A stretch of DNA of 64,000 bases. It comes from Escherichia phage APCEc01. Every line of letters begins with the position of its first letter. Positions within the stretch are counted from its first letter, which is position 1. The notes under the pieces were generated by a model, which had not been told where the DNA came from, searched no databases, and saw only the letters and a program-made list of their open reading frames with translations. The position numbers were made by a program, and so were the translations under genes. Below are positions 34,022 to 63,275 of this stretch, piece by piece. Location of the stretch: the sequence record NC_029091.1. One strand, given 5' to 3'.

Positions 34022-35835
34022 CAATTGAAAAAGAAATTGAAGGATTGATTCATAAAACTAATAAAGACCTTTTAAACGAGAATGCTAATAAAGATTCTCG
34101 TGTTTTTCCAACTCAACGGGACCTTATGGCTGGTATTGTGTCTAAACACATTGCCAAAAATATGGTCCCGTCTTTTATTATGAAAGCACATGAAAGCGGA
34201 ATTATCCATTTCCACGATATTGATTATTCCCCTGCTCTTCCGTTTACTAATTGCTGTTTAGTCGATTTAAAGGGGATGCTTGAGAACGGATTTAAATTAG
34301 GCAATGCTCAAATTGAAACGCCTAAATCTATTGGCGTTGCTACTGCAATTATGGCACAAATTACTGCACAAGTTGCTTCCCATCAATACGGCGGAACGAC
34401 TTTTGCTAATGTAGATAAAGTACTTTCTCCTTATGTTAAACGCACCTATGCAAAACATATTGAGGATGCAGAAAAATGGCAAATCGCTGATGCGTTAAAT
34501 TATGCTCAATCTAAAACAGAAAAAGACGTATACGATGCATTCCAAGCTTATGAATATGAAGTAAATACTCTCTTTAGTTCAAACGGACAAACGCCTTTTG
34601 TAACAATTACATTTGGTACGGGAACTGACTGGACTGAACGAATGATTCAGAAAGCAATTCTGAAAAATCGTATTAAAGGTCTTGGTCGTGATGGGATAAC
34701 TCCTATTTTTCCTAAACTTGTTATGTTCGTTGAAGAAGGTGTTAATCTTTATAAAGACGATCCGAACTATGATATTAAGCAGCTTGCGTTAGAATGTGCA
34801 AGCAAAAGAATGTATCCTGACATTATTTCGGTTAAGAATAATAAAGCTATCACCGGCTCATCTATTCCTGTTTCTCCAATGGGTTGTCGTAGTTTCTTGA
34901 GTGCATGGAAAGATTCAACTGGAAATGAAATTCTTGACGGTCGTAATAATCTTGGCGTTGTAACACTGAATCTTCCTCGTATAGCATTAGATTCTTATAT
35001 TGGAACACAGTTCAATGAACAGAAATTTGTTGAGCTATTTAACGAACGAATGGACCTGTGTTTTGAAGCCTTGATGTGTAGAATTAGTTCCTTAAAAGGA
35101 GTTAAAGCGACTGTTGCTCCTATTCTTTACCAAGAAGGTGCATTCGGGGTTCGTCTTAAACCTGATGACGACATAATTGAGTTATTTAAAAACGGTAGAA
35201 GTTCAGTGTCTTTAGGATACATTGGTATTCACGAATTGAATATTCTTGTCGGTCGTGATATTGGGCAAGAAATTTTAACTAAAATGAATGCTCATCTTAA
35301 ACAGTGGTCCGAAAGAACTGGATTTGCTTTTAGTTTGTATTCTACTCCTGCTGAAAACCTTTGTTACAGCTTCTGTAAACTTGATACAGAAAAATATGGA
35401 AGTGTAAAGGATGTTACTGATAAAGGTTGGTACACTAATAGTTTCCATGTTTCAGTAGAAGAAAATATTACTCCGTTTGAAAAGATTTCTCGTGAAGCGC
35501 CATATCATTTCATAGCGACAGGTGGTCACATTTCTTATGTTGAACTTCCAGATATGAAAAACAATTTAAAGGGACTTGAGGCCGTCTGGGATTATGCTGC
35601 ACAACATTTAGATTATTTTGGTGTTAATATGCCAGTGGATAAATGTTTTACATGTGGAAGTACCCATGAAATGACTCCTACTGAAAACGGATTTGTTTGT
35701 TCTATTTGTGGAGAAACTGATCCTAAAAAGATGAACACAATAAGAAGAACATGTGGTTATTTGGGAAATCCGAACGAACGCGGATTTAATCTCGGTAAAA
35801 ATAAAGAAATCATGCATAGGGTTAAACACCAATGA
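34018..35835 (+). CDS. nrdD: anaerobic ribonucleoside-triphosphate reductase NrdD
   Basis: 605 aa; C-terminal Cys cluster CFTCGSTHEM...CSICG and glycine-radical region; continuous ORF (no intron). Confidence 0.9.
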   Translation: MTIEKEIEGLIHKTNKDLLNENANKDSRVFPTQRDLMAGIVSKHIAKNMVPSFIMKAHESGIIHFHDIDYSPALPFTNCCLVDLKGMLENGFKLGNAQIETPKSIGVATAIMAQITAQVASHQYGGTTFANVDKVLSPYVKRTYAKHIEDAEKWQIADALNYAQSKTEKDVYDAFQAYEYEVNTLFSSNGQTPFVTITFGTGTDWTERMIQKAILKNRIKGLGRDGITPIFPKLVMFVEEGVNLYKDDPNYDIKQLALECASKRMYPDIISVKNNKAITGSSIPVSPMGCRSFLSAWKDSTGNEILDGRNNLGVVTLNLPRIALDSYIGTQFNEQKFVELFNERMDLCFEALMCRISSLKGVKATVAPILYQEGAFGVRLKPDDDIIELFKNGRSSVSLGYIGIHELNILVGRDIGQEILTKMNAHLKQWSERTGFAFSLYSTPAENLCYSFCKLDTEKYGSVKDVTDKGWYTNSFHVSVEENITPFEKISREAPYHFIATGGHISYVELPDMKNNLKGLEAVWDYAAQHLDYFGVNMPVDKCFTCGSTHEMTPTENGFVCSICGETDPKKMNTIRRTCGYLGNPNERGFNLGKNKEIMHRVKHQ

Positions 35836-36302
35836 ATTATGATAGATTTTATCCTTGCGATTTTGTGAATGGCCCTGGATGCAGGGTCGTTCTTTTCGTT
35901 ACGGGTTGTTTGCATAAATGCGAAGGGTGTTATAATAAATCAACATGGAATGCTAGAAATGGTGTTCCATTCACTGGTGAAACACTAGAACAATTAATTG
36001 AATGTTTGAATAATGATTATATAGAAGGATTAACTATAACCGGAGGTGACCCTCTCTATCCTGATAACCGAGATGTTATTCATTGCATTGCTCAAACAGT
36101 AAAAAATCTTTATCCCAATAAAAGCATTTGGTTGTGGACAGGATATAAGTTTGAAGATATTAAACAACTAGAAATGCTTAAATATGTTGATGTTATTATT
36201 GATGGGAAGTATGAGAAAAATCTTCCGACTAAAAAGCTGTGGCGAGGATCAGATAATCAGCGACTTTGGTCAAATACCGATGGGGTGTGGAAACATGATT
36301 AA
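35832..36302 (+). CDS. nrdG: anaerobic ribonucleotide reductase activating protein NrdG (radical SAM)
   Basis: 156 aa; N-terminal Cys-rich radical SAM-type motif GCLHKCEGCYN; ATGA overlap with nrdD. Confidence 0.85.
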   Translation: MNYDRFYPCDFVNGPGCRVVLFVTGCLHKCEGCYNKSTWNARNGVPFTGETLEQLIECLNNDYIEGLTITGGDPLYPDNRDVIHCIAQTVKNLYPNKSIWLWTGYKFEDIKQLEMLKYVDVIIDGKYEKNLPTKKLWRGSDNQRLWSNTDGVWKHD

Positions 36303-47927: not shown

Positions 47928-50639
47928 ATGAAAGAATTTTACTTAACGGTTGAACAGATTGGTGATTCAATTTTTGAACGTTACATCGATTCTAATGGCC
48001 GTGAACGTACTCGTGAAGTAGAATATAAACCATCACTGTTTGCTCATTGTCCAGAAAGTCAGGCTACGAAATATTTCGATATCTACGGTAAGCCGTGTAC
48101 TCGTAAGTTGTTCGCTAATATGCGTGATGCCTCCCAATGGATTAAACGCATGGAAGATATCGGACTTGAAGCACTTGGCATGGACGATTTCAAATTGGCG
48201 TATTTGTCTGACACTTATAACTATGAAATCAAATACGACCATACAAAAATTCGTGTGGCTAACTTCGACATCGAAGTAACATCTCCGGACGGGTTCCCTG
48301 AGCCGTCACAAGCAAAACATCCGATTGATGCTATCACCCATTATGACTCAATTGACGACAGGTTCTACGTATTTGATCTATTGAATTCTCCATATGGTAA
48401 TGTAGAAGAATGGTCTATTGAAATCGCTGCTAAGCTTCAAGAACAAGGCGGTGATGAAGTTCCATCTGAAATTATCGATAAAATCATTTATATGCCGTTC
48501 GATAACGAAAAAGAATTGTTGATGGAATATCTCAACTTCTGGCAACAGAAAACTCCTGTCATTTTGACTGGATGGAACGTTGAGTCATTTGATATTCCAT
48601 ATGTGTATAACCGAATCAAGAATATTTTTGGCGAATCTACTGCGAAACGTTTATCGCCACATCGTAAAACTCGTGTTAAAGTTATCGAAAACATGTATGG
48701 TTCTCGTGAAATCATTACATTGTTCGGTATCTCTGTTCTTGATTACATTGGCCTTTACAAAAAATTCTCTTTTACCAATCAACCGTCGTATTCTCTGGAT
48801 TACATTTCAGAATTTGAATTGAACGTTGGTAAACTGAAATATGACGGCCCTATTTCTAAGCTTCGTGAAAGCAATCACCAACGATATATTTCTTATAACA
48901 TTATCGACGTGTATCGTGTATTGCAAATTGATGCTAAGCGTCAGTTCATCAACTTGAGCTTGGACATGGGTTATTATGCTAAGATACAGATTCAATCTGT
49001 GTTTAGCCCAATTAAAACATGGGATGCTATTATTTTTAATAGCCTTAAAGAGCAGAACAAGGTGATTCCACAAGGTCGTTCTCACCCGGTTCAACCTTAT
49101 CCCGGCGCTTTTGTTAAGGAACCTATTCCAAATCGATACAAATATGTAATGAGTTTCGACCTTACATCTCTGTATCCAAGTATTATTCGCCAAGTGAATA
49201 TTAGCCCGGAAACAATAGCAGGAACGTTTAAAGTAGCTCCATTGCATGATTATATTAACGCAATCGCTGAACGTCCTTCAGATGTGTACAGTTGCTCTCC
49301 TAACGGCATGATGTATTATAAAGACCGTGATGGTGTAGTTCCAACTGAAATCACTAAGGTCTTTAATCAACGTAAAGAACATAAAGGTTACATGCTTGCA
49401 GCTCAACGTAATGGTGAAATAATTAAAGAGGCATTGCATAATCCTAATCTTTCTGTTGACGAACCATTAGATGTTGATTATCGTTTCGACTTCAGTGATG
49501 AGATTAAAGAAAAGATTAAAAAGTTGTCTGCTAAATCTCTTAATGAAATGTTGTTTAGAGCTCAACGTACTGAAGTTGCAGGTATGACCGCACAAATTAA
49601 CCGTAAATTGCTTATCAACTCACTTTATGGTGCACTTGGCAACGTTTGGTTCCGTTATTATGATTTGCGTAATGCTACTGCAATCACAACATTCGGGCAA
49701 ATGGCTTTACAGTGGATTGAACGTAAAGTTAATGAATATCTGAATGAAGTTTGTGGTACAGAAGGTGAAGCTTTCGTTCTATATGGTGATACAGACTCTA
49801 TTTACGTATCTGCTGATAAAATTATCGATAAGGTTGGTGAATCTAAATTCCGTGATACCAACCATTGGGTAGACTTCTTAGATAAGTTTGCACGTGAACG
49901 TATGGAACCTGCTATTGATAGAGGTTTCCGTGAAATGTGTGAATACATGAACAATAAACAACACTTAATGTTCATGGACCGAGAAGCTATCGCTGGTCCT
50001 CCGCTCGGTTCTAAAGGTATTGGTGGATTCTGGACTGGTAAGAAACGTTATGCATTAAACGTGTGGGATATGGAAGGAACCAGATACGCTGAGCCTAAAC
50101 TCAAAATCATGGGTCTAGAGACTCAGAAATCTTCGACCCCTAAAGCAGTACAGAAAGCTCTTAAAGAATGTATTCGTCGTATGCTTCAAGAAGGTGAAGA
50201 ATCATTACAAGAATATTTTAAAGAGTTTGAAAAAGAATTCCGTCAATTGAATTATATTAGCATCGCGTCGGTATCTTCTGCGAATAACATTGCTAAATAC
50301 GACGTAGGTGGATTCCCGGGTCCTAAATGCCCGTTCCATATTCGTGGAATTCTGACATATAACCGAGCTATCAAAGGTAATATTGATGCACCACAAGTTG
50401 TAGAAGGTGAAAAAGTATATGTTCTGCCTTTACGTGAAGGAAACCCATTCGGTGATAAATGTATCGCATGGCCTTCTGGTACTGAAATCACAGATTTAAT
50501 TAAAGACGATGTACTTCATTGGATGGACTACACTGTTCTCCTTGAGAAGACATTTATTAAACCACTTGAAGGATTCACATCAGCAGCTAAACTCGATTAC
50601 GAGAAGAAAGCATCTCTGTTCGATATGTTTGATTTTTGA
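47928..50639 (+). CDS. 43: DNA polymerase gp43 (family B, with 3'-5' exonuclease)
   Basis: 903 aa; MKEFYLTVEQIGDSIFERYIDSNGRERTREVEYKPSLFAHCPES...; exo motifs FDIEV and NVESFDIPYVY, pol motifs SLYPSII and YGDTDS; matches my memory of the RB69 polymerase. Confidence 0.97.
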   Translation: MKEFYLTVEQIGDSIFERYIDSNGRERTREVEYKPSLFAHCPESQATKYFDIYGKPCTRKLFANMRDASQWIKRMEDIGLEALGMDDFKLAYLSDTYNYEIKYDHTKIRVANFDIEVTSPDGFPEPSQAKHPIDAITHYDSIDDRFYVFDLLNSPYGNVEEWSIEIAAKLQEQGGDEVPSEIIDKIIYMPFDNEKELLMEYLNFWQQKTPVILTGWNVESFDIPYVYNRIKNIFGESTAKRLSPHRKTRVKVIENMYGSREIITLFGISVLDYIGLYKKFSFTNQPSYSLDYISEFELNVGKLKYDGPISKLRESNHQRYISYNIIDVYRVLQIDAKRQFINLSLDMGYYAKIQIQSVFSPIKTWDAIIFNSLKEQNKVIPQGRSHPVQPYPGAFVKEPIPNRYKYVMSFDLTSLYPSIIRQVNISPETIAGTFKVAPLHDYINAIAERPSDVYSCSPNGMMYYKDRDGVVPTEITKVFNQRKEHKGYMLAAQRNGEIIKEALHNPNLSVDEPLDVDYRFDFSDEIKEKIKKLSAKSLNEMLFRAQRTEVAGMTAQINRKLLINSLYGALGNVWFRYYDLRNATAITTFGQMALQWIERKVNEYLNEVCGTEGEAFVLYGDTDSIYVSADKIIDKVGESKFRDTNHWVDFLDKFARERMEPAIDRGFREMCEYMNNKQHLMFMDREAIAGPPLGSKGIGGFWTGKKRYALNVWDMEGTRYAEPKLKIMGLETQKSSTPKAVQKALKECIRRMLQEGEESLQEYFKEFEKEFRQLNYISIASVSSANNIAKYDVGGFPGPKCPFHIRGILTYNRAIKGNIDAPQVVEGEKVYVLPLREGNPFGDKCIAWPSGTEITDLIKDDVLHWMDYTVLLEKTFIKPLEGFTSAAKLDYEKKASLFDMFDF

Positions 50640-50679: not shown

Positions 50680-51315
50680 ATGAAAACTACTCCTATTACT
50701 ATCGCTATTGACGCAATCGTAAAACAAGCTTCATCTCTTGCCACTATGGCTAAAGTAATTAGTCAAAACCCTGCTCGTTATAATGCTATTCTAGAAACTC
50801 TTCGACGCCCTGGACTTAGTAATTATGAAAGCCGGGTAATTATTACAGGTGTTGGTAAGAATGCTAATATCGCAACTAAAGCTTCCGAGACTTTTGCTTC
50901 ACTAGGTATTCCTAGCATGTATTTGAACACCGGGCATTATTCTCATGGTGACGCAGGATTTATTGCGCCTAATGACGTGTTGATTCATATTAGTCGTTCT
51001 GGTAAAACTGAAGAAATGATAGGTGTTGCTAAACATCTTCGTATGATTCGTCCTCAGGTTAAACAGATTCTGTTACATTGTAACCCAGACATTCCACAAG
51101 AATACGAAGCTCTTTTTGATTATACGTTCTGTACCGGTATCGCGGTAGAAGTTGACGAGAACTCTTTAGCTCCGACTATGTCCACTACATTGTTGTTAGC
51201 GCTTATCGATACGTTTGCTATCAACCTTTCGTCTGAACGTGGATTTACCTCTAATGATTTCCTTAAGTTCCATCCAGGCGGTGCACTAGGTGCCATGTTA
51301 CGAGGCGAACAATGA
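50680..51315 (+). CDS. SIS-domain sugar-phosphate isomerase (KdsD/GutQ-like arabinose-5-phosphate isomerase candidate)
   Basis: 211 aa; SIS motifs ITGVGKNANIATKASETFASLGIP and IHISRSGKTEE; C-terminal FHPGGALGAML as in API enzymes; no CBS domains. Confidence 0.65.
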   Translation: MKTTPITIAIDAIVKQASSLATMAKVISQNPARYNAILETLRRPGLSNYESRVIITGVGKNANIATKASETFASLGIPSMYLNTGHYSHGDAGFIAPNDVLIHISRSGKTEEMIGVAKHLRMIRPQVKQILLHCNPDIPQEYEALFDYTFCTGIAVEVDENSLAPTMSTTLLLALIDTFAINLSSERGFTSNDFLKFHPGGALGAMLRGEQ

Positions 51316-51452
51316 AAGCAATAACAATAGGACTTTTACTATTGATGCTTGTCATGACTATCTACTGGAGCTTAACGGCTCCGGTAATGATTCCAACACT
51401 TGTAATTGGATGGATTATGATTGGACTACAAGCAAAGTATGAATGCTTTAAC
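51312..51452 (+). CDS. small hydrophobic membrane peptide (46 aa; possible Imm-like remnant)
   Basis: ATG 51312 overlaps upstream stop; MKAITIGLLLLMLVMTIYWSLTAPVMIPTLVIGWIMIGLQAKYECFN; below track size threshold. Confidence 0.4.
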
Positions 51453-51496
51453 TAGAATAGTGTACAATACTCCTACTTACCAATGAGGACTTCAAC

Positions 51497-53182
51497 ATGA
51501 AAAAAGCTGTTATTCTTGGTGCTGGACTGGCAACTCGTTTGTATCCAATAACGCATCATATTCCTAAGGTGCTTGTTAATTATAAACAAGACACTATTCT
51601 GAGCAATTTGTATACAATTTATTCTGACCTTGGCGCAGATGAAATTATTGTAGTAGTTCATTCAAAATTTGCTGAAACTGTTCGAGCTTATTGTGAGCAA
51701 GAAGGGTTCAATGTGACTATTCGTACAGTTGATGAAGCGTATGGTTCTGCTTATGCTCTTGCTAAATTACACAAAGATTTAGACGGCCATAATGTAATTG
51801 TTAACTGGTGTGATATTATTCCTGATTTTGGTTCATGGTCTTGGAATGTTAACGCAATCTATGTTAAGGGTGACGAATGTCGATATAATTTCGACGGTGA
51901 AAATATCACTAACGTAGGTTCAACAGGTGGTAATGTTGTAGGAATTTATCAGTTCAAAGACTGGGAATTCTATATGGGTTCTACCGATGAGGAAATTCAT
52001 GAATACTGCAAAGGACGTGATTTCGTAGAATTCCTTTACGGCAGCGCATTCAATAAATCAGAGCTTATGAATATAATTGATTTAGGTGATATGCCTAAAC
52101 TTGAAAAGGCTCATGAAGTTCGTGAACTTAATCGTAGTTTTAATGCAGTTGAAATTGGTGAAGAAACTGTAACTAAATTCGCATTAACCGAACAGGGTCG
52201 AGCTCTTCAGAAAGATGAGATTTCGTGGTATTTGAAAGTGAAATCAGATTCAGTTCCTCAGTTAGTTTCTGTTAATGAAAATAACTTTGAAATGGAACGC
52301 ATTAAAGGTAAGCCAGCATTTGAATATATTAAATCCAAATCAAGTCTTGCTCGTCCACAAATTGTTGATGCAATTTTAGATGCACTGAAATTCAGCACAG
52401 ACACTTATTTTGTAAGTCCTGAAACTGTTCGTCGTGATTTCACTAAAGAATTCTATACGAAAGTTATTGATCGTTGTGAAAGCATTCAACCGTTGATTGA
52501 TTCATTTGGTAAAATCACACATGTGAACTACACTAAGATTGGACGTCTGAAGCCAATGCTGAAACAAGCTTTAGAACACCTTATTCGGTATCATAACCGT
52601 TCTCAGGGACAGTACTCTGTTATTCACGGTGACCCGAACTTCAGTAATACTATGATTACTGATAACGGCGAAGTCAAGTTTATCGACCCTCGTGGATATT
52701 TTGGCGAAACCAAGATTTACGGGCCAAAATTGTATGATGAAGCTAAAGTGCTTTATGCTGTTTCAGGTTATGATGAATTCAATGCTAATCCGACCTGGGG
52801 GCAGTTTACTATTGATGAAACAACTTGTAATGTGACTATTAACATCAATCCATTAGTTTACAAATATGGAAAGATGAGTTCGTTTAACGAGTATCATCAT
52901 TTGGCAGTGGCAATTATCTGGATTGCATTAGGTGGTTATTTCAAGAATAATCCACTTAAAGCGGTAGCCGCATATTATAAAGGTATGGAACTTCTGACTA
53001 AGCAATTACGTAACATGGGCCGTGTACTTCAGGACGGCTCTATTAGTTATGACGTAGCAGAACCTGTAACGGCTACTCTGATTACAAAAAATCCTGGTAA
53101 ATGGGTACTAACTGATAAAGAAACTGGTGTTTCCTATCGTCCAATCGGTGGCGATATCACTCATCAATGGGAACGAATCTAA
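51497..53182 (+). CDS. bifunctional sugar-1-phosphate nucleotidyltransferase / anomeric sugar kinase (APH-ChoK fold)
   Basis: 561 aa; N-terminal AVILGAGLATRLYPITHHIPKVLV pyrophosphorylase signature; C-terminal IHGDPNFSNTMITDNGEVKFIDPRGYFG matches the HxDxxxxN catalytic loop and Dxx metal motif of APH/choline-kinase-like kinases. Confidence 0.7.
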   Translation: MKKAVILGAGLATRLYPITHHIPKVLVNYKQDTILSNLYTIYSDLGADEIIVVVHSKFAETVRAYCEQEGFNVTIRTVDEAYGSAYALAKLHKDLDGHNVIVNWCDIIPDFGSWSWNVNAIYVKGDECRYNFDGENITNVGSTGGNVVGIYQFKDWEFYMGSTDEEIHEYCKGRDFVEFLYGSAFNKSELMNIIDLGDMPKLEKAHEVRELNRSFNAVEIGEETVTKFALTEQGRALQKDEISWYLKVKSDSVPQLVSVNENNFEMERIKGKPAFEYIKSKSSLARPQIVDAILDALKFSTDTYFVSPETVRRDFTKEFYTKVIDRCESIQPLIDSFGKITHVNYTKIGRLKPMLKQALEHLIRYHNRSQGQYSVIHGDPNFSNTMITDNGEVKFIDPRGYFGETKIYGPKLYDEAKVLYAVSGYDEFNANPTWGQFTIDETTCNVTININPLVYKYGKMSSFNEYHHLAVAIIWIALGGYFKNNPLKAVAAYYKGMELLTKQLRNMGRVLQDGSISYDVAEPVTATLITKNPGKWVLTDKETGVSYRPIGGDITHQWERI

Positions 53183-53568
53183 TGCACCGTGTAGAAAACA
53201 TGCTTAATCTTTGTTTTGATGTCGATGATTGTATAACAGAGTGGAATAACAATCGTGATTACGTGAACTTCAAACCTGACGTCGAAATGGTGTCTGCCAT
53301 TAATGCCCTGTATGATGCAGGGCATACCATAACGCTTTACACTGCTCGCGGTATGAAGTCAGTAGGTCCTGGTCGTATAGCAATTGACATTCTCCCAAGT
53401 CTTATTCAGAACTTGGCAAACATTGGCTTGAAGTACCATAATTTGCTAACACATAAACCAGTATATGATTGGATTATCGACGACAAAGCTATGCGTCCTG
53501 ACGAATTCAAAGCTCTTATGAATAAAGGCGAATTCGAAACATTTAAATCATATAAACCGAATCTATAA
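53182..53568 (+). CDS. HAD-superfamily phosphatase
   Basis: ATG 53182 overlapping upstream stop (TAATG); 128 aa; motif I DVDDCIT near N-terminus, TARG and DDK motifs downstream. Confidence 0.6.
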   Translation: MHRVENMLNLCFDVDDCITEWNNNRDYVNFKPDVEMVSAINALYDAGHTITLYTARGMKSVGPGRIAIDILPSLIQNLANIGLKYHNLLTHKPVYDWIIDDKAMRPDEFKALMNKGEFETFKSYKPNL

Positions 53569-53628
53569 TAATTTAAGTAAGACCTGCAAAAAAAAACCAT
53601 CGCATCAATTAACGCGAGATGCAAAAAA

Positions 53629-54789
53629 ATGAATACTTTTAAAATCGGAACGAATTTTGATTTAGCTCTTCTTGATAAAATCGTAGAGCTCAATAAAACT
53701 TATCCTAATAGCTTGATAAATGAAGTATACGGCTCTACAAGAGAAATGGCTTTTGTAGCAGCCAGACCTGATTTTAGGCTTCCTGACGTTGACAAAAAGA
53801 TGTTAGAAGATTACGTTAAACGTTGTAACGAATTAGGTATTTGCTTTAACTATACACTCAACACGATAAATCCTGGTTCAAAAAGAGAACTAGTTGAGTG
53901 GAAGAAGAAAGCTATTCAGGATTATGTTCAGTATCTTTGGTCAATAGGCGTATGGCGTATTACTATCGCTAACCCTGTTGTTATGGAAATTGTTCGTGAA
54001 GTCAATAAAGACATTGAGATTGAAGTTTCAACAATTCTACATGTCGATGCTGTAACTCAAATCAAATACTTGCATGACCAATATAATATCAAAAAGGTCT
54101 GCTGTGGAATTCATAAGAACCGTTCAGTTTCTTTCCTGAAGCGTGCAGCAGAGTTTTGCAATAAGAACAATATAATATTTGAAGTTCTTGTAAATGAGTT
54201 CTGTTCTAATGCTGGTAAAGGGTATACAACACATTGTAGCTATCGTGACTCTTGCTATATTTTCCATAGTACTGATGTTACAGCTGATGATGCTAAATCC
54301 TTAAACGGATATCCTATGCAGCACTGTATTAAAGCTCGTGATACAGACCCATTTAACTGGTTGAGAACTCGTTTTGTTCGTCCTCAAGATTTGAAACTTT
54401 ATAATGATATTGGTATCACTCAATTCAAAGTTTCAGGACGTACAGGTAGCACAGACTACATTTTGAAAGTTCTTGAAGCATACGCTTCTGAAAAGTTTGA
54501 AGGTAATTTGTTAGAACTGTGGAAGCCTTTAGAGACTATTTTCACTCTTGAAAACGAAACTGAGTTTTCACATACAGTAAATATTGAAACCTCTTTGTTA
54601 GATGGCTTTTTAGAAAAAAGGTGGTTCAGACATCCAGATTTCGATTGTGCTAATGAAATCTGCGGGACGACGTGTACATATTGTGAAAGATATTATAAAC
54701 GTCAATTATCTAAAAACGGGTTAGCAGAAAACTCTATATCTATTATTGATATAACTAACTCTGATGACGCTTTGAGGTACCCGGAATGA
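53629..54789 (+). CDS. Cys-cluster enzyme of unknown function (possible U32-like/TIM-barrel or transferase)
   Basis: 386 aa; internal EFCSNAGKGYTTHCSYRDSCY and C-terminal CANEICGTTCTYCERYY Cys clusters; family not confidently recognised. Confidence 0.5.
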   Translation: MNTFKIGTNFDLALLDKIVELNKTYPNSLINEVYGSTREMAFVAARPDFRLPDVDKKMLEDYVKRCNELGICFNYTLNTINPGSKRELVEWKKKAIQDYVQYLWSIGVWRITIANPVVMEIVREVNKDIEIEVSTILHVDAVTQIKYLHDQYNIKKVCCGIHKNRSVSFLKRAAEFCNKNNIIFEVLVNEFCSNAGKGYTTHCSYRDSCYIFHSTDVTADDAKSLNGYPMQHCIKARDTDPFNWLRTRFVRPQDLKLYNDIGITQFKVSGRTGSTDYILKVLEAYASEKFEGNLLELWKPLETIFTLENETEFSHTVNIETSLLDGFLEKRWFRHPDFDCANEICGTTCTYCERYYKRQLSKNGLAENSISIIDITNSDDALRYPE

Positions 54790-55025
54790 TTTCTAGAAAA
54801 ACTTTTAACCACCAACTTAATGAAGAGATTTTGACTATGAAACTGAACACTAATGAACAAATTCTTAAAAAGGCCCATCAGGGCCTTTTTGAAACTAAAG
54901 CGGCTAAAGTGATTAAAGAACCTGTTCAATTAGAATACTACGCTGATGCATTTCTTCATAGTGTTCTTGGAAGTATCGATGCCGAAGCTTTACGTTATAT
55001 CAATATTGCCAAGAAATTCAAATAA
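54786..55025 (+). CDS. hypothetical protein
   Basis: 79 aa; ATGA overlap with upstream gene. Confidence 0.45.
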   Translation: MISRKTFNHQLNEEILTMKLNTNEQILKKAHQGLFETKAAKVIKEPVQLEYYADAFLHSVLGSIDAEALRYINIAKKFK

Positions 55026-55047
55026 GCTTTACGAATTGAGTATATAA
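55023..55047 (+). promoter_or_regulatory. candidate MotA-dependent middle promoter for gene 42
   Basis: AAGCTTTA MotA-box-like sequence 11 nt upstream of TATAAT at 55042. Confidence 0.4.
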
Positions 55048-55066
55048 TAATTGTATTGAGGTAAAC

Positions 55067-55783
55067 ATGGGAAAACATAACACAATGAAATATATCAAAG
55101 CCGCAGATTTTCAAACCGCATTTAAAGCAGTCAATCGTGAAATTTTAGAAAACCCGGAATTCGTAACTGATTCTCGTATTGGACGTTGTAATGAAATTGG
55201 GTCTATGACAGTAGTTGTTGACACTCCATCATCATTCAAAATGACCGACCCACGTATTAACCGCATCTCTTATGAATATGCCGAAGACTTCTGGAAGTTT
55301 ATGATTTCTGGTGGTACCAACGCAGAAGAAGCGTTTAAGGCATATCCTAATGTCGCTAAATTTATTTCTAAACCAAAATCAGATGTTTTGCCGGCGAACT
55401 TCAACACTTTCTATGGTCCTCGCATTGCGGCTCAATTACCAGCTCTTCTAAAAGAACTTAAAGAGAAGCCTAACTCCCGAAGAGTTGTGTTCCAAATTCT
55501 AGAAAGTTCTGATCAGGCTTTGCTTGATTCGGACGAAACGCTTGAATATCCATGTACTGACTCAGTGACTTATTATATTCGTGATGGTAAGCTTTATACC
55601 CACTGTCATATGCGTTCTCAGAACTGTGCTGTTGTTATGCAGTTGGATTTTTATCTCCAAGGAAAATTACTTCATTATATCGCTAACGAATGTGGTGTAG
55701 AAGTTGGTGATTATACTCATACCATGGTAAGTGCCCATGTGTTTGAACGTGATTTTGATTATGTTAAAGGATTCCTTGACTAA
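55067..55783 (+). CDS. 42: dCMP hydroxymethylase gp42 (thymidylate-synthase fold)
   Basis: 238 aa; TS-family landmarks SRRVVFQ, nucleophile PCTD, MRSQNCAVVMQLDF, SAHVF; only TS-like gene here; position between 43 and uvsX as in T4. Confidence 0.7.
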   Translation: MGKHNTMKYIKAADFQTAFKAVNREILENPEFVTDSRIGRCNEIGSMTVVVDTPSSFKMTDPRINRISYEYAEDFWKFMISGGTNAEEAFKAYPNVAKFISKPKSDVLPANFNTFYGPRIAAQLPALLKELKEKPNSRRVVFQILESSDQALLDSDETLEYPCTDSVTYYIRDGKLYTHCHMRSQNCAVVMQLDFYLQGKLLHYIANECGVEVGDYTHTMVSAHVFERDFDYVKGFLD

Positions 55784-56682
55784 TGGCTATTTTCCGCGTA
55801 CCTATCTTGAGTATGCGGTCTTATGAAACTGGACAGTATGCTATCCTTAAGGATGGCAACTTCCAACTTCATTTGCACCGTGCTAATCCGGGTGATGTGA
55901 TTACATATCCACGTAATGCATCTGATATTAAAGAATGCGAACGTCTTTTTCCAGAATTTAAGTTTGTTCCATTATGGTATAAAGATAACGCGTATAACAC
56001 TCGTAAATATTTCTGGTCTGAAAATGAATTTGTGGTTGATTCATTAATTGCTTATTATGACTGTGATTTTCTAATCACAGATATCACTGGATATGACGGC
56101 GCTTTTGATGTGGAATTCAATTTCAATATCACTGCAGACCCTAATAAACCACGTTTTTATATTGACGAATTCTTAAAAACCGATATGTTGTCGGTTAATC
56201 GTTCACTTCAAACTACTGTGTTGAATGAACGTCAAAAAGAAGTGCTGGTTAACGCTGGTGCAGATGGTAATAAGATTATCGTAACGCAGAAAGTTATACG
56301 TCCTTCCATCATGCAGCGTCTTGTAGGTGATTTGGCTCCTATTCATCTAGATGGTATTTTTCATCCATTTCGAATTAGTGACCCATGCTATCGTTTTGAA
56401 CAAGTTGTTGAATGCGCAATTCAATTAGGTCAACCGCTTTATATAACCGATCCAAATAATAGCTTCGACAGAAATAAGTATCCTGAAGAAGCGTTGATTC
56501 GAATTTTTAAACCAACTAAAACTGAGTACTATCAAATTCTTAAAGGACGTCCGAAAATTCAATATTTCGAAAATCCTGAAGAAGTATTCCATCCAGGTCT
56601 TGGTGAGTTCATCTACTTTAATGCTTTAATTTCTTCGCCGTATAATATACCTAAATATGAAGATGTCGTAATCGAGGAATAA
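55783..56682 (+). CDS. hypothetical protein occupying the beta-glucosyltransferase position (candidate modification enzyme)
   Basis: 299 aa; no resemblance to remembered T4 beta-gt; ATGG overlap with gene 42 stop. Confidence 0.5.
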   Translation: MAIFRVPILSMRSYETGQYAILKDGNFQLHLHRANPGDVITYPRNASDIKECERLFPEFKFVPLWYKDNAYNTRKYFWSENEFVVDSLIAYYDCDFLITDITGYDGAFDVEFNFNITADPNKPRFYIDEFLKTDMLSVNRSLQTTVLNERQKEVLVNAGADGNKIIVTQKVIRPSIMQRLVGDLAPIHLDGIFHPFRISDPCYRFEQVVECAIQLGQPLYITDPNNSFDRNKYPEEALIRIFKPTKTEYYQILKGRPKIQYFENPEEVFHPGLGEFIYFNALISSPYNIPKYEDVVIEE

Positions 56683-56683
56683 A

Positions 56684-57232
56684 ATGGCTAAAATTATTTT
56701 AGTAGATGGCCCAGATAATGCTGGTAAAACAACTTTCATTAATGTCATAATGGAAATTAGTGAAAGATATGTAAAGATTGATTTCCCTAAACGAACAGTT
56801 GATGGGCGTTTCGATGTTAAGTCTCGAAATGAAGTTGGCTGTTTCGAAACGATGTTGAATTATTTAGACCCTACTAAGATTTATCTGTTAGACCGTGGAT
56901 ATATTAGTAACTGGGTTTATGGACGTATTCGACAAGATGCGGACTCGATTCTTGACGTTTATGAACAGGACTATGTTCGTCTTTGCCAAAACCATGATGT
57001 GTTCACAATTATTTTAACACGTAACGAAATGACTGAAAGTTTTGAAGACGACCTTATTACTTTGTCTTCATTCGGTTTTAATACAGTCATTTCACATTTT
57101 GAAGAGTTTGCAATTCATAACAAAATCCAAACGTATCAATTACTTAATCATGATGGTGCTAACAAAGTTATAGGATTTAATGCAAGCGAACGTAATTATT
57201 TGATTACAGAAATTATCAAATGGGCTCGTTAA
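56684..57232 (+). CDS. P-loop nucleotide/nucleoside kinase-like protein
   Basis: 182 aa; Walker A ILVDGPDNAGKTT, DRGY segment; resembles dNMP/thymidylate-kinase-like P-loop kinases. Confidence 0.5.
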   Translation: MAKIILVDGPDNAGKTTFINVIMEISERYVKIDFPKRTVDGRFDVKSRNEVGCFETMLNYLDPTKIYLLDRGYISNWVYGRIRQDADSILDVYEQDYVRLCQNHDVFTIILTRNEMTESFEDDLITLSSFGFNTVISHFEEFAIHNKIQTYQLLNHDGANKVIGFNASERNYLITEIIKWAR

Positions 57233-57330: not shown

Positions 57331-58503
57331 ATGTCTGATTTAAAATCTCGTCTGATTAAAGCTTCTACTTCTAAAATGACTGCAGACTTGACTAAGTCTA
57401 AGCTGTTTAATAATCGTGATGAAGTCCCTACTCGTATTCCGATGTTGAATATTGCACTAGGTGGTGCACTGAATGCTGGGTTGCAATCAGGCTTAACTAT
57501 TTTTGCTGCTCCTTCTAAACACTTTAAAACATTGTTTGGGCTGACCATGGTTGCAGCATATATGAAGAAATATAAAGATGCAATCTGTTTGTTTTATGAC
57601 TCAGAATTCGGTGCTTCAGAATCTTATTTTCGTTCAATGGGTGTTGATTTAGACCGTGTAGTTCATACTCCGATTCAATCTGTCGAACAACTTAAAGTTG
57701 ATATGACTAATCAGCTTGACGCGATTGAACGCGGTGATAAAGTTATTATCTTTATCGATTCAATCGGTAATACTGCATCTAAGAAAGAAACCGAAGATGC
57801 GTTGAACGAGAAAGTTGTAGGTGATATGTCTCGTGCTAAGGCACTTAAATCTCTGTTCCGCATTGTGACCCCGTATCTGACTATTAAAGATATTCCGTGT
57901 GTTGCAATTAACCATACCGCAATGGAAATCGGCGGACTATATCCTAAAGAGATTATGGGTGGTGGTACAGGTATTCTTTACTCTGCTAACACTGTATTCT
58001 TTATCTCTAAACGTCAGGTTAAAGAAGGTACAGAATTGACCGGTTATGACTTCACGTTGAAAGCAGAAAAATCTCGTACAGTTAAAGAGAAATCTACTTT
58101 CCCGATCACGGTTAATTTTGATGGCGGTATTGATCCATTCAGTGGCTTGTTAGAAATGGCAACTGAAATTGGATTTGTTGTTAAGCCTAAAGCTGGTTGG
58201 TATGCTCGTGAATTCCTTGACGAAGAAACAGGTGAAATGATTCGTGAAGAGAAATCGTGGCGTGCTAAAGCTACTGATTGTGTAGAATTCTGGGGTCCGT
58301 TGTTTAAACACAAACCTTTCCGTGACGCAATTGAAACTAAATATAAACTAGGTGCTATCTCTTCTATTAAAGAAGTTGATGACGCTGTTAATGACCTTAT
58401 TAATTGCAAAGCAACAACTAAAGTTCCGGTTAAAACTTCTGATGCTCCGTCTGCAGCAGATATAGAAAACGACCTTGACGAAATGGAAGATTTCGATGAA
58501 TAA
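57331..58503 (+). CDS. uvsX: recombinase UvsX (RecA-like)
   Basis: 390 aa; MSDLKSRLIKASTSKMTADLTKSKLFNNRDEVPTRIPMLNIALGG...; Walker A GPSKHFKT; matches T4 UvsX. Confidence 0.93.
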   Translation: MSDLKSRLIKASTSKMTADLTKSKLFNNRDEVPTRIPMLNIALGGALNAGLQSGLTIFAAPSKHFKTLFGLTMVAAYMKKYKDAICLFYDSEFGASESYFRSMGVDLDRVVHTPIQSVEQLKVDMTNQLDAIERGDKVIIFIDSIGNTASKKETEDALNEKVVGDMSRAKALKSLFRIVTPYLTIKDIPCVAINHTAMEIGGLYPKEIMGGGTGILYSANTVFFISKRQVKEGTELTGYDFTLKAEKSRTVKEKSTFPITVNFDGGIDPFSGLLEMATEIGFVVKPKAGWYAREFLDEETGEMIREEKSWRAKATDCVEFWGPLFKHKPFRDAIETKYKLGAISSIKEVDDAVNDLINCKATTKVPVKTSDAPSAADIENDLDEMEDFDE

Positions 58504-58846: not shown

Positions 58847-60289
58847 GTGGTAGAAATTATTTTGTCTCATCTCGTATATGACCAGGCTTATTTTTCTAAG
58901 GTCTGGCCTTATATGGATTCTGAGTATTTTGAGCGTGGACCGGCAAAAAATGTCTTTAAAATTATAAAGAGCCACGTTAACGAATATAATGCAATGCCAT
59001 CTATCAATGCGTTAAAGGTGGCTTTAGATAACAGTTCTTTAACTGAAGCCGAATATAAAGGAACTTCAGACCTAATTGAAAAATTGGCTGATACTCCTGA
59101 AGACCACGAATGGTTGGTTAAAGAAACTGAGAAATATGTCCAGCAAAAAGCGATGTATAATGCTACATCCAAAATCATTGAGATTCAGTCTAATGCTGAA
59201 CTACCTCCGGAACAACGTAACAAGAAAATGCCTGACGTAGGAGCTATTCCTGATATTATGCGTCAAGCACTTTCAATTTCGTTCGATAGTTATGTTGGGC
59301 ATGACTGGATGGAAGACTATGAAGCACGTTGGCTTTCTTATCTAAATAAAGCACGTAAGGTCCCGTTCAAATTAAACATTTTGAATAAAATCACTAAAGG
59401 TGGTGCTGAAACCGGTACACTAAACGTTTTAATGGCTGGTGTTAACGTCGGTAAATCTTTAGGCCTTTGTTCACTTGCTGCAGATTATCTTCAAACAGGG
59501 CATAATGTTCTTTATATTTCCATGGAAATGGCTGAAGAAGTTTGTGCTAAGCGTATAGATGCAAACATGCTTGACGTATCACTTGATGATATTGATGATG
59601 GTAACGTATCTTATGCTGAATATAAAGCCAAGATGGAAAAATGGCGTTCAAAAACAACATTAGGACGTTTAGTAGTTAAACAGTATCCTACTGGTGGAGC
59701 TAATGCTAATACATTTCGTGCATTGCTTAATGAGTTAAAACTTAAGAAGAACTTTGTGCCATCTGTAATCATGGTTGATTACTTAGGTATTTGTGGGTCT
59801 TGTCGTATCAGAGTTTACACTGAAAATAGCTACACATTAGTTAAAGCTATCGCAGAAGAACTTCGTGCATTAGCAGTAGAATCTGAAACAGTTCTATGGA
59901 CTGCAGCTCAAGTAGGACGTGCAGCATGGGATGCTTCAGACATGAACATGAGTGATATCGCAGAATCAGCAGGTTTACCAGCAACGGCAGATTTCATGTT
60001 GGCTGTAATTGAAACCGAAGAACTTGCACAAGCTGAACAACAACTTATCAAACAAATCAAATCACGATACGGCGATAAGAATAAGTGGAATAAATTCCTG
60101 ATGGGTGTACGTAAAGGCAATCAGAAATGGGTTGAGATTGAGCAAGAAGGCATGAACACACCTAACACAGTAAATGAAAACGCAGGTGCTCAGATGCGTC
60201 AGGCAGAGGTGAATCGTACGGAACGCGTAGGTAAAGCCAAAGCAACACGTGCGGACCTAGATAGCTTAGCCAATGAGTTAAAATTTTAA
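58847..60289 (+). CDS. 41: replicative DNA helicase gp41 (DnaB-like)
   Basis: GTG start after AAGGAG; MVEIILSHLVYDQAYFSKVWPYMDSEYFE...; Walker A GVNVGKS; 480 aa; matches T4 gp41. Confidence 0.93.
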   Translation: MVEIILSHLVYDQAYFSKVWPYMDSEYFERGPAKNVFKIIKSHVNEYNAMPSINALKVALDNSSLTEAEYKGTSDLIEKLADTPEDHEWLVKETEKYVQQKAMYNATSKIIEIQSNAELPPEQRNKKMPDVGAIPDIMRQALSISFDSYVGHDWMEDYEARWLSYLNKARKVPFKLNILNKITKGGAETGTLNVLMAGVNVGKSLGLCSLAADYLQTGHNVLYISMEMAEEVCAKRIDANMLDVSLDDIDDGNVSYAEYKAKMEKWRSKTTLGRLVVKQYPTGGANANTFRALLNELKLKKNFVPSVIMVDYLGICGSCRIRVYTENSYTLVKAIAEELRALAVESETVLWTAAQVGRAAWDASDMNMSDIAESAGLPATADFMLAVIETEELAQAEQQLIKQIKSRYGDKNKWNKFLMGVRKGNQKWVEIEQEGMNTPNTVNENAGAQMRQAEVNRTERVGKAKATRADLDSLANELKF

Positions 60290-61587: not shown

Positions 61588-61956
61588 ATGAAAAAATTAA
61601 TCGCTTTAGCAATGGTGTTTGGATTAACCGGATGTGGTGCCCATGGCTTTATCCCTAATAACGTCGGCCAATTGATTTACAATCCGAATGTTAAACAGTA
61701 CGACCAACCTAAAGTTGAAGTGGAAGACCCGGTTACTGTAGGTAATCGAATGATTCAAGCTGATGCCCATGCTCAACGTTATCGTGACTCTGATACCGTA
61801 GCATTGTCAAAAGAACAACGCGTTAAAGAACATTGTCTACAGGCTACTGAAATCGCATTCATTCGCTATGTTGAAACAACTGGTAAAGAGCCTACCCAGA
61901 AACAAATCGCGAATAACTACGTCCAGTGTATTGAACGTTTAAACAAATTTAATTAA
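61588..61956 (+). CDS. lipoprotein
   Basis: 122 aa; signal peptide with lipobox LTGC (MKKLIALAMVFGLTGCG). Confidence 0.55.
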   Translation: MKKLIALAMVFGLTGCGAHGFIPNNVGQLIYNPNVKQYDQPKVEVEDPVTVGNRMIQADAHAQRYRDSDTVALSKEQRVKEHCLQATEIAFIRYVETTGKEPTQKQIANNYVQCIERLNKFN

Positions 61957-62017: not shown

Positions 62018-62266
62018 ATGGAATTATTCGTAGCTAGTTCAGTGGCAGTTTTAATCGCAGGTATTGGTTCAATCATCATTTACATGTTGCCTTGGGTAAT
62101 CGCACTTATTCGTGGCACAAAAAGCACAACAGCAATCTTCTTTGTATCTTTACTCTTTAACTGGACGATGGTTGGTTGGATTGGAACTTTAATTTGGTCT
62201 ATCGTTGCCGAAAAGAAATCGGCTCAGCAGCCTCAACAAGTAATTATTATTCGTGAAAAAGAATAA
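62018..62266 (+). CDS. small inner-membrane protein
   Basis: 82 aa; two TM helices. Confidence 0.5.
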   Translation: MELFVASSVAVLIAGIGSIIIYMLPWVIALIRGTKSTTAIFFVSLLFNWTMVGWIGTLIWSIVAEKKSAQQPQQVIIIREKE

Positions 62267-62329: not shown

Positions 62330-62623
62330 ATGAAAAAGTTATCATTGGCAGCAATCTTACTTGCAGTATCATGTGCACCGGCTCCAGTTACGGCAGGTTA
62401 TGATAAAGACCTCTGTGAGTGGTCAATGACTGCAAATCAAGAAGATGTTGAACAACAAATCTTCTCTGATATCATGAACATCACTAAACGAGACCGTCCT
62501 AATATGGTTAATAAAGTTGTTGAACAACTTAAGTCTGGTGGTATCATGCAGTACAACTATGTTTTGTATTGTGACCCTAATTTCGATAACAAAGATATCG
62601 TAACCGAAATCACAGGTGAATAA
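62330..62623 (+). CDS. sp: Spackle (Sp) periplasmic superinfection-exclusion / lysozyme-inhibitor protein
   Basis: 97 aa; signal peptide then GYDKDLCEWSMTANQEDVEQQI...SGGIMQYNYVLYCDPNFDNKDIVTEITGE matches remembered T4 Sp. Confidence 0.7.
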   Translation: MKKLSLAAILLAVSCAPAPVTAGYDKDLCEWSMTANQEDVEQQIFSDIMNITKRDRPNMVNKVVEQLKSGGIMQYNYVLYCDPNFDNKDIVTEITGE

Positions 62624-62624
62624 T

Positions 62625-63275
62625 ATGATTTATTATATGCACAAAAATCCACCGTTTAAATACGGTAAATTTCCTGATGCACAATGTTATAATATAACGC
62701 CTGATGAAAACAATCGTGGATATCATATTGGTGTAATTTTTGTAATTGTTAAAGATAACGAAATCGTTGCCTGGGCAGATTTTAAAGGTACAACATATGA
62801 TGTTAATCCTGTGCCTTTCACATATTACAATATAATGGATTTGGCATATGATTATAATTGGTTTAATCATGACACGTTGGCTCATATTGAAGGTGTAGGA
62901 TTTGACATCTCTTATTCTAGCTATTCATTATGTCCTATGAGCCGAGCTCACGGTAAAGATGCCTCATATTTTTCATTTCGGAAACGTGTAAACTTCAAAC
63001 GTAGTACAGAGTATGTTGGTGGACTCTTTGTTAAAGATAATAAAATAACCCGTATTAGTTATCCTCTAAGTGTAGGCCAAAAAGATGTTGATGTTGATTT
63101 AGACTTAACTGAAAATAACATTAATCGTATTGCTTCTGTATATTTTGATATCGATGAAAAAATTGTAGTGTGTGGATATGAATTACCACCTGAAGAAAAG
63201 GCTGAAGCAATTGAAGTCGAATTAGAAATTTCTGTCGATGACCAAATATTTAATGCATTTATGAATCGAGGTTAA
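62625..63275 (+). CDS. hypothetical protein
   Basis: ATG 62625 just after sp stop; 216 aa. Confidence 0.5.
   Translation: MIYYMHKNPPFKYGKFPDAQCYNITPDENNRGYHIGVIFVIVKDNEIVAWADFKGTTYDVNPVPFTYYNIMDLAYDYNWFNHDTLAHIEGVGFDISYSSYSLCPMSRAHGKDASYFSFRKRVNFKRSTEYVGGLFVKDNKITRISYPLSVGQKDVDVDLDLTENNINRIASVYFDIDEKIVVCGYELPPEEKAEAIEVELEISVDDQIFNAFMNRG

Follow-up and report, generated by a model that had tools for sequence, protein, structure and literature searches.

We analysed a stretch of 64,000 nucleotides from Escherichia phage APCEc01 (NC_029091.1; hereafter the window), in which the interval between gene 43, encoding a T4-type DNA polymerase (open reading frame (ORF) 47928-50639), and uvsX (ORF 57331-58503) is filled by eight co-directional ORFs whose ends overlap or almost touch (Table 1). 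A megablast search of this interval, 50680-57232, against 50,697 phage records returned 150 genomes in which 80% or more of the stretch is covered, and 152 records reach 95% nucleotide identity or above. Since the matches are all of Mosigvirus type, with 98-99.3% identity over the full length of the query in 150 Mosigvirus genomes including RB69, HY126 and Shigella phage JK42 (JK42, 99.3%), the window comes from an RB69-like phage. The gene order is identical to that of the RB69 and HY126 maps, and because the cassette proteins are 97-100% identical in amino acid (aa) sequence to their RB69 and HY126 counterparts, we regard the cassette as very probably the hypermodification cluster by which RB69-type phages put arabinosyl-5-hydroxycytosine into their DNA (RB69 gp45-gp55; the HY126 AfhE/AfhF cluster). 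No counter-evidence to this reading of the cassette as a whole was found. One of its members, a Peptidase_U32-family protein (U32 protein), could offer another way, independent of O2, of making the hydroxylated base.

The cassette is already in the literature: a proposal of 2018 (Thomas 2018) was followed by its elucidation in 2025-2026 (Mahler 2025; He 2026; Lee 2026). In RB69 DNA, Thomas et al. 2018 (PMC6024577) detected arabinose and reported arabinosyl-hydroxymethylcytosine (ara-hmC), an assignment that an independent 2026 paper calls erroneous (PMC13390438). By nuclear magnetic resonance (NMR) and mass spectrometry (MS), Lee et al. 2026 (Nucleic Acids Research, PMC13326640) identified the RB69 base as 5-hydroxy-2'-deoxycytidine bearing one or two arabinoses, joined to C5 through an ether link, and assigned gp55, gp52:53, gp51, gp46:47 and gp45 from structure prediction; mono- or di-arabinosyl-5-hydroxy-dC in place of C has been shown in the virion DNA of both RB69 and Mosigvirus NP (PMC13326640, PMC13390438). 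A first-pass annotation of the window, made from the sequence alone, had described a DNA hypermodification cassette building nucleoside diphosphate (NDP)-arabinose from ribulose-5-phosphate, which was right in kind (PMC6024577, PMC13326640). It had described RB69-type phages as reported to carry ara-hmC; the arabinosylated cytosine stands and the hydroxymethyl group does not, the base being 5-hydroxycytosine (PMC13326640). The reading of the cassette is thus a rediscovery, and it shows that a reading of sequence alone can recognise such a system.

The window shares with the RB69 and HY126 clusters all eight genes, their order and position between 43 and uvsX, and the D169N substitution discussed below. 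It differs from RB69 in that genes 52/53 and 46/47 are unsplit: in the RB69 reference NC_004928, ORF053c/052c and ORF047c/046c (L002 2873-4559 and 7156-8056) are split by single-base sequencing errors, and both genes are unbroken here, at 561 and 299 aa. For gp52:53, a single ORF was shown experimentally in RB69 (PMC6024577). The difference from HY126 lies in gp49, which is full-length in the window and reduced to 40 aa in HY126 (L003 6158-6280). GC content and skew within the cassette equal those of the flanks, and the idea of a compositional island was dropped since neither shifts; a promoter and terminator scan of the region gave counts at or below shuffle expectation. The 181 nt at 51316-51496, between the SIS gene and the gene for the bifunctional enzyme, hold nothing but a small ORF whose annotation varies (36 aa in RB69, 47 aa in HY126, a 50-aa GTG ORF at 51290-51442 in the window), and the RB69 record remarks on the resemblance of this region to the T4 42-imm intercistronic region.

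Table 1. Positions of the cassette genes and of other features in the window, with the evidence for each
Feature	Position	Strand	Length	Evidence
Predicted SIS-only D-arabinose-5-phosphate isomerase (RB69 gp55)	50680..51315	+	211 aa	Pfam SIS, NCBIfam
Predicted bifunctional sugar kinase and UDP-sugar pyrophosphorylase (RB69 gp52:53, HY126 AfhE)	51497..53182	+	561 aa	Pfam, HY126 identity
HAD-type phosphatase, predicted (RB69 gp51, HY126 AfhF)	53182..53568	+	128 aa	TIGR01689, DVDDC
Peptidase_U32-family protein (RB69 gp50)	53629..54789	+	386 aa	Pfam, predicted fold
gp49 (RB69 gp49)	54786..55025	+	79 aa	phrog_8601
Thymidylate-synthase-family protein, predicted 5-hydroxy-dCMP synthase (RB69 gp48)	55067..55783	+	238 aa	Pfam, residue signature
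Predicted GT-B-fold glycosyltransferase (RB69 gp46:47)	55783..56682	+	299 aa	AlphaFold2 and Foldseek
Thymidylate-kinase-like P-loop nucleotide kinase, predicted (RB69 gp45)	56684..57232	+	182 aa	phrog_761
NrdD anaerobic ribonucleotide reductase	34018-35835	+		Pfam NRDD 2e-170, Gly_radical
NrdG activase	35832-36302	+		Fer4_12, Radical_SAM
imm.1 homolog	61588-61956	+		tblastn with T4 Imm.1
imm homolog	62018-62266	+		tblastn with T4 Imm
AdfA (anti-DarT factor A)	62616-63275	+	219 aa	Pfam AdfA 2e-123

The modification pathway and its T4 counterpart

The families that the first-pass annotation had named for the SIS isomerase, the pyrophosphorylase/kinase fusion, the HAD phosphatase and the P-loop kinase were upheld by Pfam, NCBIfam and PHROG matches, and profile searches with the SIS, NTP_transferase, HAD, thymidylate synthase (TS) and kinase ORFs returned named families, none of them unrelated. 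In the sugar branch, the SIS protein carries a KFHPGGALG motif, matches Pfam SIS (4e-10), the NCBIfam models KpsF/GutQ (5e-32) and KdsD (2e-30) and phrog_5670, and is 97-98% identical to its RB69 and HY126 counterparts; it would convert ribulose-5-phosphate to arabinose-5-phosphate, the role given to RB69 gp55 by structure prediction (PMC13326640). The 561-aa protein has a Pfam NTP_transferase match at residues 3-99 (8e-10) and weak kinase-fold matches at residues 308-409, and is 97.2% identical to the HY126 protein. The HAD protein, 100% identical to that of HY126, has an FDVDDC motif and matches TIGR01689 (EcbF-BcbF capsule biosynthesis phosphatase, 4e-13). Its longest ORF begins at 53167 (133 aa), and the ATG at 53182, which overlaps the upstream TAA stop (TAATG), is its likely start. 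According to He et al. 2026, as reported in PMC13326640, HY126 AfhE is an arabinose-5-phosphate kinase yielding arabinose-1,5-bisphosphate as well as a UDP-arabinose pyrophosphorylase, and AfhF is a Mg-dependent phosphatase that takes the bisphosphate to arabinose-1-phosphate, so that the kinase precedes the phosphatase on the way to UDP-arabinofuranose (UDP-Araf). The first-pass annotation had put dephosphorylation before anomeric phosphorylation, the reverse of this reported order, and had held the donor pathway not to be worked out, which the steps since reported for AfhE and AfhF overtake. All the genes of this route (SIS isomerase, AfhE-type, AfhF-type) are in the window: by their domains and their 97-100% identity to HY126, the bifunctional enzyme is predicted to phosphorylate C1, the HAD enzyme to remove the 5-phosphate and the N-terminal domain of the former to produce UDP-Araf. 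Of additional note, Klebsiella phage vB_Kpn_F48 (Marfavirus; L013 6233-9004) has AfhE, HAD, kinase, U32, chorismate mutase, TS and glycosyltransferase genes without a SIS isomerase gene, and presumably would draw arabinose-5-phosphate from the host KdsD/GutQ.

In the base branch, the TS-family protein matches Pfam Thymidylat_synt (2e-15) and is 99.2% identical to RB69 gp48 and 25% identical to T4 gp42. When aligned with E. coli ThyA and T4 gp42, it has the catalytic Cys together with L143E and N177D (LEYPC; MRSQN...QLD), and an Asn at ThyA position 169, which is Asp in both ThyA and T4 gp42. Because D169N is the diagnostic signature of 5-hydroxy-dCMP synthases (PMC13326640), the protein, called gene 42 in the first-pass annotation, is not a gp42 ortholog, and a folate-dependent dCMP hydroxymethylase of the gp42 type would have kept D169. 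From this signature we take it to be a flavin/O2-dependent 5-hydroxy-dCMP (5hodCMP) synthase. It would hydroxylate dCMP at C5 with flavin and O2, as shown for RB69 gp48, which binds an FMN (flavin mononucleotide)-like flavin and, together with the dNMP kinase gp159, places 5-hydroxydeoxycytidine (5hodC) whose 18O comes from 18O2 in E. coli DNA (PMC13326640). Kinases would then raise 5hodCMP to the triphosphate, which would replace dCTP during replication. The last ORF of the cassette matches phrog_761 thymidylate kinase (3e-44) and, weakly, TIGR00041; a nucleotide-kinase role is predicted for it, its RB69 counterpart gp45 being termed a "nucleotide kinase" (PMC13326640). The dNMP kinase gp159 and a dCTPase would be pathway parts encoded outside the window.

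The 299-aa protein adjoining the TS homolog had been set down as unknown, in a cassette for which no transferase had been named. It has no Pfam match; its AlphaFold2 model, built from 53 homologs, has a predicted local distance difference test (pLDDT) score of 94.8, and the Foldseek matches of the model in the PDB are MshA (3c4q), a mannosyltransferase (7qsg), the BH4 glucosyltransferase (5ze7) and UDP-GlcNAc 2-epimerases. As modelled, it is a GT-B-fold glycosyltransferase. RB69 gp46:47 has been proposed, by structure prediction, as the first (alpha) arabinosyltransferase (PMC13326640), and we predict that the 299-aa enzyme likewise would transfer the first arabinose to DNA, onto the 5-hydroxyl. 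The second arabinose would be added by a transferase of the RB69 gp3 type, whose locus near rIIA lies at least about 14 kb past the right end of the window, as judged from RB69/JK42 match coordinates.

In T4 the genes between 43 and uvsX are imm.1, imm, 42, beta-gt and segA, and only one cassette protein, the TS-family protein at 25% identity to gp42, has a match there; the absence of the cassette genes from T4, which the first-pass annotation had expected, is borne out for this interval with this one qualification. The T4 glucosyl-hmC system (gp42, alpha-gt, beta-gt) shares with the cassette its locus, a TS-family enzyme that alters dCMP before replication and, in its logic, GT-B enzymes that attach sugars from a UDP-sugar. 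The two differ in that the cassette base bears a hydroxyl rather than a hydroxymethyl group, is formed with flavin and O2 rather than folate, and consequently depends on O2 for its formation as the T4 base does not; moreover, the phage has to make its own donor sugar, Enterobacteria being without NDP-arabinose (PMC13326640). No homolog of alpha-gt or beta-gt accompanies the cassette: a tblastn search of the whole window with the two T4 proteins returned nothing above noise (best E 0.014 and 1.6), as the first-pass annotation had said. Its statement that imm had been replaced was mistaken. Matches to T4 Imm (62018-62263, 64% identity, E 3e-31) and Imm.1 (61594-61941, 32% identity, E 3e-15) are found downstream of gene 41, not between 43 and 42 as in T4, and these homologs indicate that imm and imm.1 were moved, not lost.

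Two other readings of the cassette should be weighed here. In the version given by the first-pass annotation, gp42 would make hydroxymethyl-dCMP and the NDP-arabinose of the cassette would go to hmC through a transferase outside the window. The TS-family protein is indeed the positional counterpart of T4 gene 42, the two having N177D and an acidic L143 position in common, and the 2018 report of ara-hmC pointed the same way; the D169N signature and low identity to gp42, the 5hodC made by the 99%-identical RB69 gp48, the NMR and MS placement of arabinose on an oxygen directly at C5 (PMC13326640, PMC13390438) and the GT-B transferase within the cassette itself make this version highly improbable. 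Still less credible is the reading that the genes serve host envelope sugars (3-deoxy-D-manno-octulosonate (Kdo)/lipopolysaccharide or capsule) as an auxiliary metabolic module: the best family matches are KdsD/GutQ/KpsF and the EcbF-BcbF phosphatase, and some GenBank records read "capsular polysaccharide biosynthesis protein", but the genes lie between those for DNA polymerase and UvsX, co-oriented and overlapping with genes for a dCMP-modifying enzyme, a glycosyltransferase and a nucleotide kinase, no Kdo-8-phosphate synthase accompanies them, the published product UDP-Araf serves DNA (PMC13326640), and RB69 DNA contains arabinose.

The U32 protein and its gene neighbours

The 386-aa protein, described in the first-pass annotation as a Cys-cluster enzyme, is Cys-rich as stated, and its family, left unnamed there, is Peptidase_U32 (Pfam 7e-11, above the gathering score). 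A sequence search of the PDB gave no match at E <= 1; in the AlphaFold2 model (pLDDT 92), the top Foldseek match in the PDB is the U32 protein 5d88, the remainder being generic TIM barrels, and no solved structure of RlhA, TrhP or UbiU is among the best 50 matches. Nine Cys residues are invariant in 57 homologs: C158, C192, C203, C209, C233 and a C-terminal C340-x4-C-x3-C-x2-C352 cluster. When the family profile was compared with the E. coli paralogs by hhalign, RlhA was best (probability 83.5%, E 8e-6, 203 columns), followed by TrhP (13.8%) and UbiU (4.6%).

Among U32 proteins are the factors known for hydroxylation without O2. RlhA is required for 5-hydroxycytidine 2501 of 23S rRNA and needs Fe-S biogenesis, prephenate, Cys169/Cys176 and two C-terminal Cys; TrhP is an O2-independent hydroxylation factor for ho5U (ho5U34) in tRNA; UbiU/UbiV use prephenate as oxygen donor in anaerobic ubiquinone synthesis. 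The conserved Cys of the U32 motif (C169/C176 in RlhA, C169/C176/C193/C232 in UbiU) bind or depend on a 4Fe-4S cluster. With RlhA, TrhP, UbiU and UbiV the phage protein shares the U32 domain and fold, further invariant Cys and a gene linkage to prephenate supply, and the product of RlhA, 5-hydroxycytidine, resembles the 5-hydroxycytosine that this phage needs. It differs from them in its identity of just about 18-19%, in lacking the RlhA DUF3656 or the TrhP C-terminal domain and having its own invariant C-terminal CX4CX3CX2C cluster, and in its presumed substrate, a deoxynucleotide or DNA rather than RNA or a quinone.

No other cassette protein is as conserved as U32, which has at least 81.6% identity in all 220 phage records that carry it. 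It is 79-87% identical to the proteins of Enterobacter, Klebsiella, Yersinia and Shewanella phages, against 65-79% for DNA polymerase and 44-71% for AfhE. The ratio of non-synonymous to synonymous substitution rates (dN/dS) is 0.01-0.085 within Mosigvirus; between genera dS is saturated and dN is 0.12-0.13, on which grounds recent horizontal spread was rejected as the cause of the conservation. These rates point to purifying selection.

In most other genera, the gene overlapping the U32 stop encodes an AroQ chorismate mutase of 79 aa, which matches Pfam CM_2 (2.4e-10) and several NCBIfam chorismate mutase models and keeps the R/R/K/E/S/Q catalytic positions (R11/R28/K39/E52/S84/Q88 type). By tblastn it occurs in at least 56 phage records, from phage groups also among the U32 matches, the sole exception being a 12-kb human-faecal phage contig. 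The pair moves as a unit, because in Shewanella phage Thanatos-2 both genes stand together elsewhere in the cluster, after the kinase. The product of chorismate mutase is prephenate. In the window, the start of gp49 overlaps the U32 stop (ATGA), and the only database match of gp49 is phrog_8601. The possibility that gp49 is a diverged AroQ chorismate mutase was rejected: there is no Pfam or NCBIfam match at E <= 10, BLASTP gives E 6.8 and hhalign a probability of 0.2%. The Entb_45 protein, of the same slot and length, is a chorismate mutase (CM_2 2.4e-10), and Yersinia phiR1-RT and Serratia 92A1 have a gp49 homolog and a chorismate mutase together, in the order U32-gp49-CM-TS (CM, chorismate mutase). 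The gp49 gene changes more quickly than those around it (90-95% identity, against over 99% for U32) and is matched in two pieces in several Mosigvirus records (H229, H230, H235, H241, H242), suggesting frameshifts; gp49 is probably dispensable.

We also scanned IMG/VR with the U32 family alignment and obtained 52 loci, namely 15 close Straboviridae, 33 distant loci from viral contigs of 8-294 kb (40-55% identity) and four weak matches (24-30%), which were excluded from counts. ORFs were called, clustered and labelled, and neighbours were counted within 8 kb either side of U32. Homologs of the 299-aa glycosyltransferase were found near 23 of the 33 distant and all 15 Straboviridae genes, AfhE homologs near 16 and 15, and SIS isomerases near 9 and 7, respectively. 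A Tmk-like kinase (cluster c26) and a T4 beta-gt-like protein each occur at 6 distant loci and at none of the Straboviridae, which have their own gp45-type kinase in a separate cluster. A D169N-type TS homolog is present at 15/15 Straboviridae and 0/33 distant loci; the one TS-family gene seen near a distant U32 (L035) was rejected as a hydroxylase type, being a canonical ThyA with D169, N177 and L143. Chorismate mutase domains occur at 12 of the Straboviridae loci, as stand-alone AroQ enzymes, and at five distant loci (L044, L045, L047, L048, L058), where genes encoding 320-372 aa, one or two genes from U32, specify fusions with 3-deoxy-D-arabinoheptulosonate 7-phosphate (DAHP) synthase (Pfam DAHP_synth_1 2.5e-36, CM_2 7.9e-18). 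DAHP synthase opens the shikimate pathway and chorismate mutase stands at its branch point towards prephenate, and we know of no description of such a fusion in a virus.

The uncultured cassettes (L033-L066), with gene orders such as GT-SIS-AfhE-x-U32, Tmk-GT-U32-DnaE and U32-GT-AfhE-x-bgt-like-GT (GT, glycosyltransferase), thus share with the RB69 type a U32 homolog beside the glycosyltransferase, AfhE, SIS and Tmk-like kinase. They differ in having no TS-type 5hodCMP synthase within the distance counted, in the DAHP-synthase fusion or beta-gt-like protein of some, and in other replication modules, including a DnaE-type polymerase. They differ further in cluster c8, a protein of about 200 aa without a Pfam match that stands between AfhE and U32 in 16 loci (L042-L064), in the slot that HAD takes in phages of the RB69 type, and that may be a non-homologous phosphatase. 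Cluster c28 (409 aa), with BLASTP similarity to T4 beta-glucosyltransferase, lies in U32/glycosyltransferase/AfhE clusters (L050, L052, L055, L056, L060, L062) and hints at mixed or multi-sugar decoration. Other metagenomic homologs, at 50-58% identity, have two sets of neighbours: dCMP deaminase, thymidylate kinase and a UDG-DnaE polymerase in the one, NT5C, dNK and a nucleoside deoxyribosyltransferase in the other. From the neighbour counts in the 33 distant and 15 Straboviridae loci, the linkage of U32 to DNA-type glycosyltransferases and nucleotide kinases thus extends across a far wider range of viruses than that of the TS-type hydroxylase.

A candidate oxygen-independent hydroxylase

Based on these findings, we propose that the U32 protein is a prephenate-dependent, O2-independent cytosine C5 hydroxylase, an assignment drawn from sequence and gene context for which we see the case as evenly balanced. 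In this scheme prephenate would serve as oxygen donor, as with RlhA, TrhP and UbiU/V. Hydroxylation would most likely take place at the deoxynucleotide level, since U32 is linked to nucleotide kinases. Such a route would permit DNA modification in anoxic hosts. RB69 gp50 appears in PMC13326640 only in Table 1, and gp49 is unmentioned. The words U32, prephenate, RlhA and TrhP are absent from the text, and its Discussion mentions unrelated routes of pyrimidine hydroxylation, citing for them the RlhA paper and one on 5-hydroxyuridine in tRNA. Our literature search, with He 2026 and Mahler 2025 outside it, found nothing tying U32 or prephenate to RB69, 5-hydroxycytosine or arabinosylated DNA. That the assignment is both correct and unreported seems to us possible, with doubt slightly the stronger.

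The chief alternative is that U32 is no base hydroxylase at all and acts as a sugar or heterocycle reductase, as a peptidase, or as an auxiliary to host U32 functions (ubiquinone, tRNA or rRNA hydroxylation). Table 1 of PMC13326640 labels gp50 a "sugar or heterocycle reductase", the BASEL annotation reads "putative enzyme involved in UDP-arabinose biosynthesis", and the family owes its name to peptidases, with reports of collagenases; the model shows a generic TIM barrel, to which sugar-phosphate enzymes are also similar, and phages without U32 carry the other cassette genes. Against a reductase, the route from ribulose-5-phosphate to UDP-Araf needs no reduction step (PMC13326640). In uncultured viruses U32 accompanies the glycosyltransferase and Tmk-like kinase even without AfhE and SIS, and elsewhere dCMP deaminase, dNK and NT5C, and these neighbours tie it to the nucleotide branch rather than to the sugar branch. 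The linked chorismate mutase, or its DAHP-synthase fusion, indicates prephenate, the co-substrate of U32 hydroxylation, and the closest E. coli paralog by profile is RlhA, a 5-hydroxycytidine synthase. Taking these points together, we consider a non-hydroxylase role rather doubtful, though to be reckoned with seriously.

Several observations weigh against the hydroxylase proposal. U32 is absent from Dhakavirus WG01, which infects E. coli, and from Acinetobacter phages that carry the rest of the cassette: DLP3 (gp76-gp83) and WG01 share the TS homolog, AfhE, HAD, kinase and glycosyltransferase in the same region and are without U32, gp49 and chorismate mutase, and DLP3 differs further in a third arabinose added by extra glycosyltransferases (PMC13326640). 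Since the U32-less DLP3 makes arabinosyl-5-hydroxycytosine (PMC13326640), U32 is dispensable in air. In vitro hydroxylation has yet to be shown for any U32 protein, and the published reductase label of gp50 also counts here. No chorismate mutase was found anywhere in the window, and Mosigviruses, APCEc01 included, have lost it, with the unrelated gp49 in its place. Under hhalign the phage C203/C209 fall on RlhA C169/C176 in a common CYIxH(A/S) motif and their equivalence is likely, but a MAFFT alignment sets the register off by one Cys. That the uncultured phages have no TS-type hydroxylase holds only for the 8 kb either side of U32.

The host range, by contrast, speaks for the proposal. Among Acinetobacter phages, 57 records have an AfhE homolog and none is among the U32 matches, a correlation with host that is confounded by phylogeny and spans few independent lineages. 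Acinetobacter is a strict aerobe, and the hosts of U32-bearing phages (Enterobacterales, Shewanella) are facultative anaerobes.

Neighbouring genes and implications for anaerobic hosts

Outside the cassette, AdfA is a counter-defence against the DarTG1 toxin-antitoxin system that has been described in T4-like phages. As a separate observation, gp41 (gene 41, 58847-60289) is 85% identical to T4 gp41 and 66-73% identical to the proteins of Enterobacter, Klebsiella, Yersinia and Shewanella phages, a pattern opposite to that of gp43 and UvsX, suggesting mosaic ancestry of the replication module. The genes for NrdD and NrdG indicate that the phage is equipped for O2-free replication.

This equipment bears on a residual question of the published system, in which the route to 5-hydroxycytosine needs O2 while the hosts are gut Enterobacteria and the phage carries an anaerobic ribonucleotide reductase. 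We tentatively suggest, leaning slightly to the doubtful side, that U32 supplies 5-hydroxycytosine where the TS-type synthase cannot work, as in anoxic gut or sediment, and that it is the original hydroxylase of the pathway, because uncultured phages pair U32 with the glycosyltransferase, AfhE and SIS, in some cases along with a DAHP-synthase/chorismate mutase of their own, with no TS-type hydroxylase nearby. If the hydroxylase proposal is true, this protein would be the first U32 enzyme given a DNA or deoxynucleotide chemistry and a further example of prephenate as oxygen donor, and it would offer a tractable soluble model for a family whose activity has yet to be reconstituted. It would also predict which therapeutic phages keep restriction-proof DNA at anaerobic infection sites.

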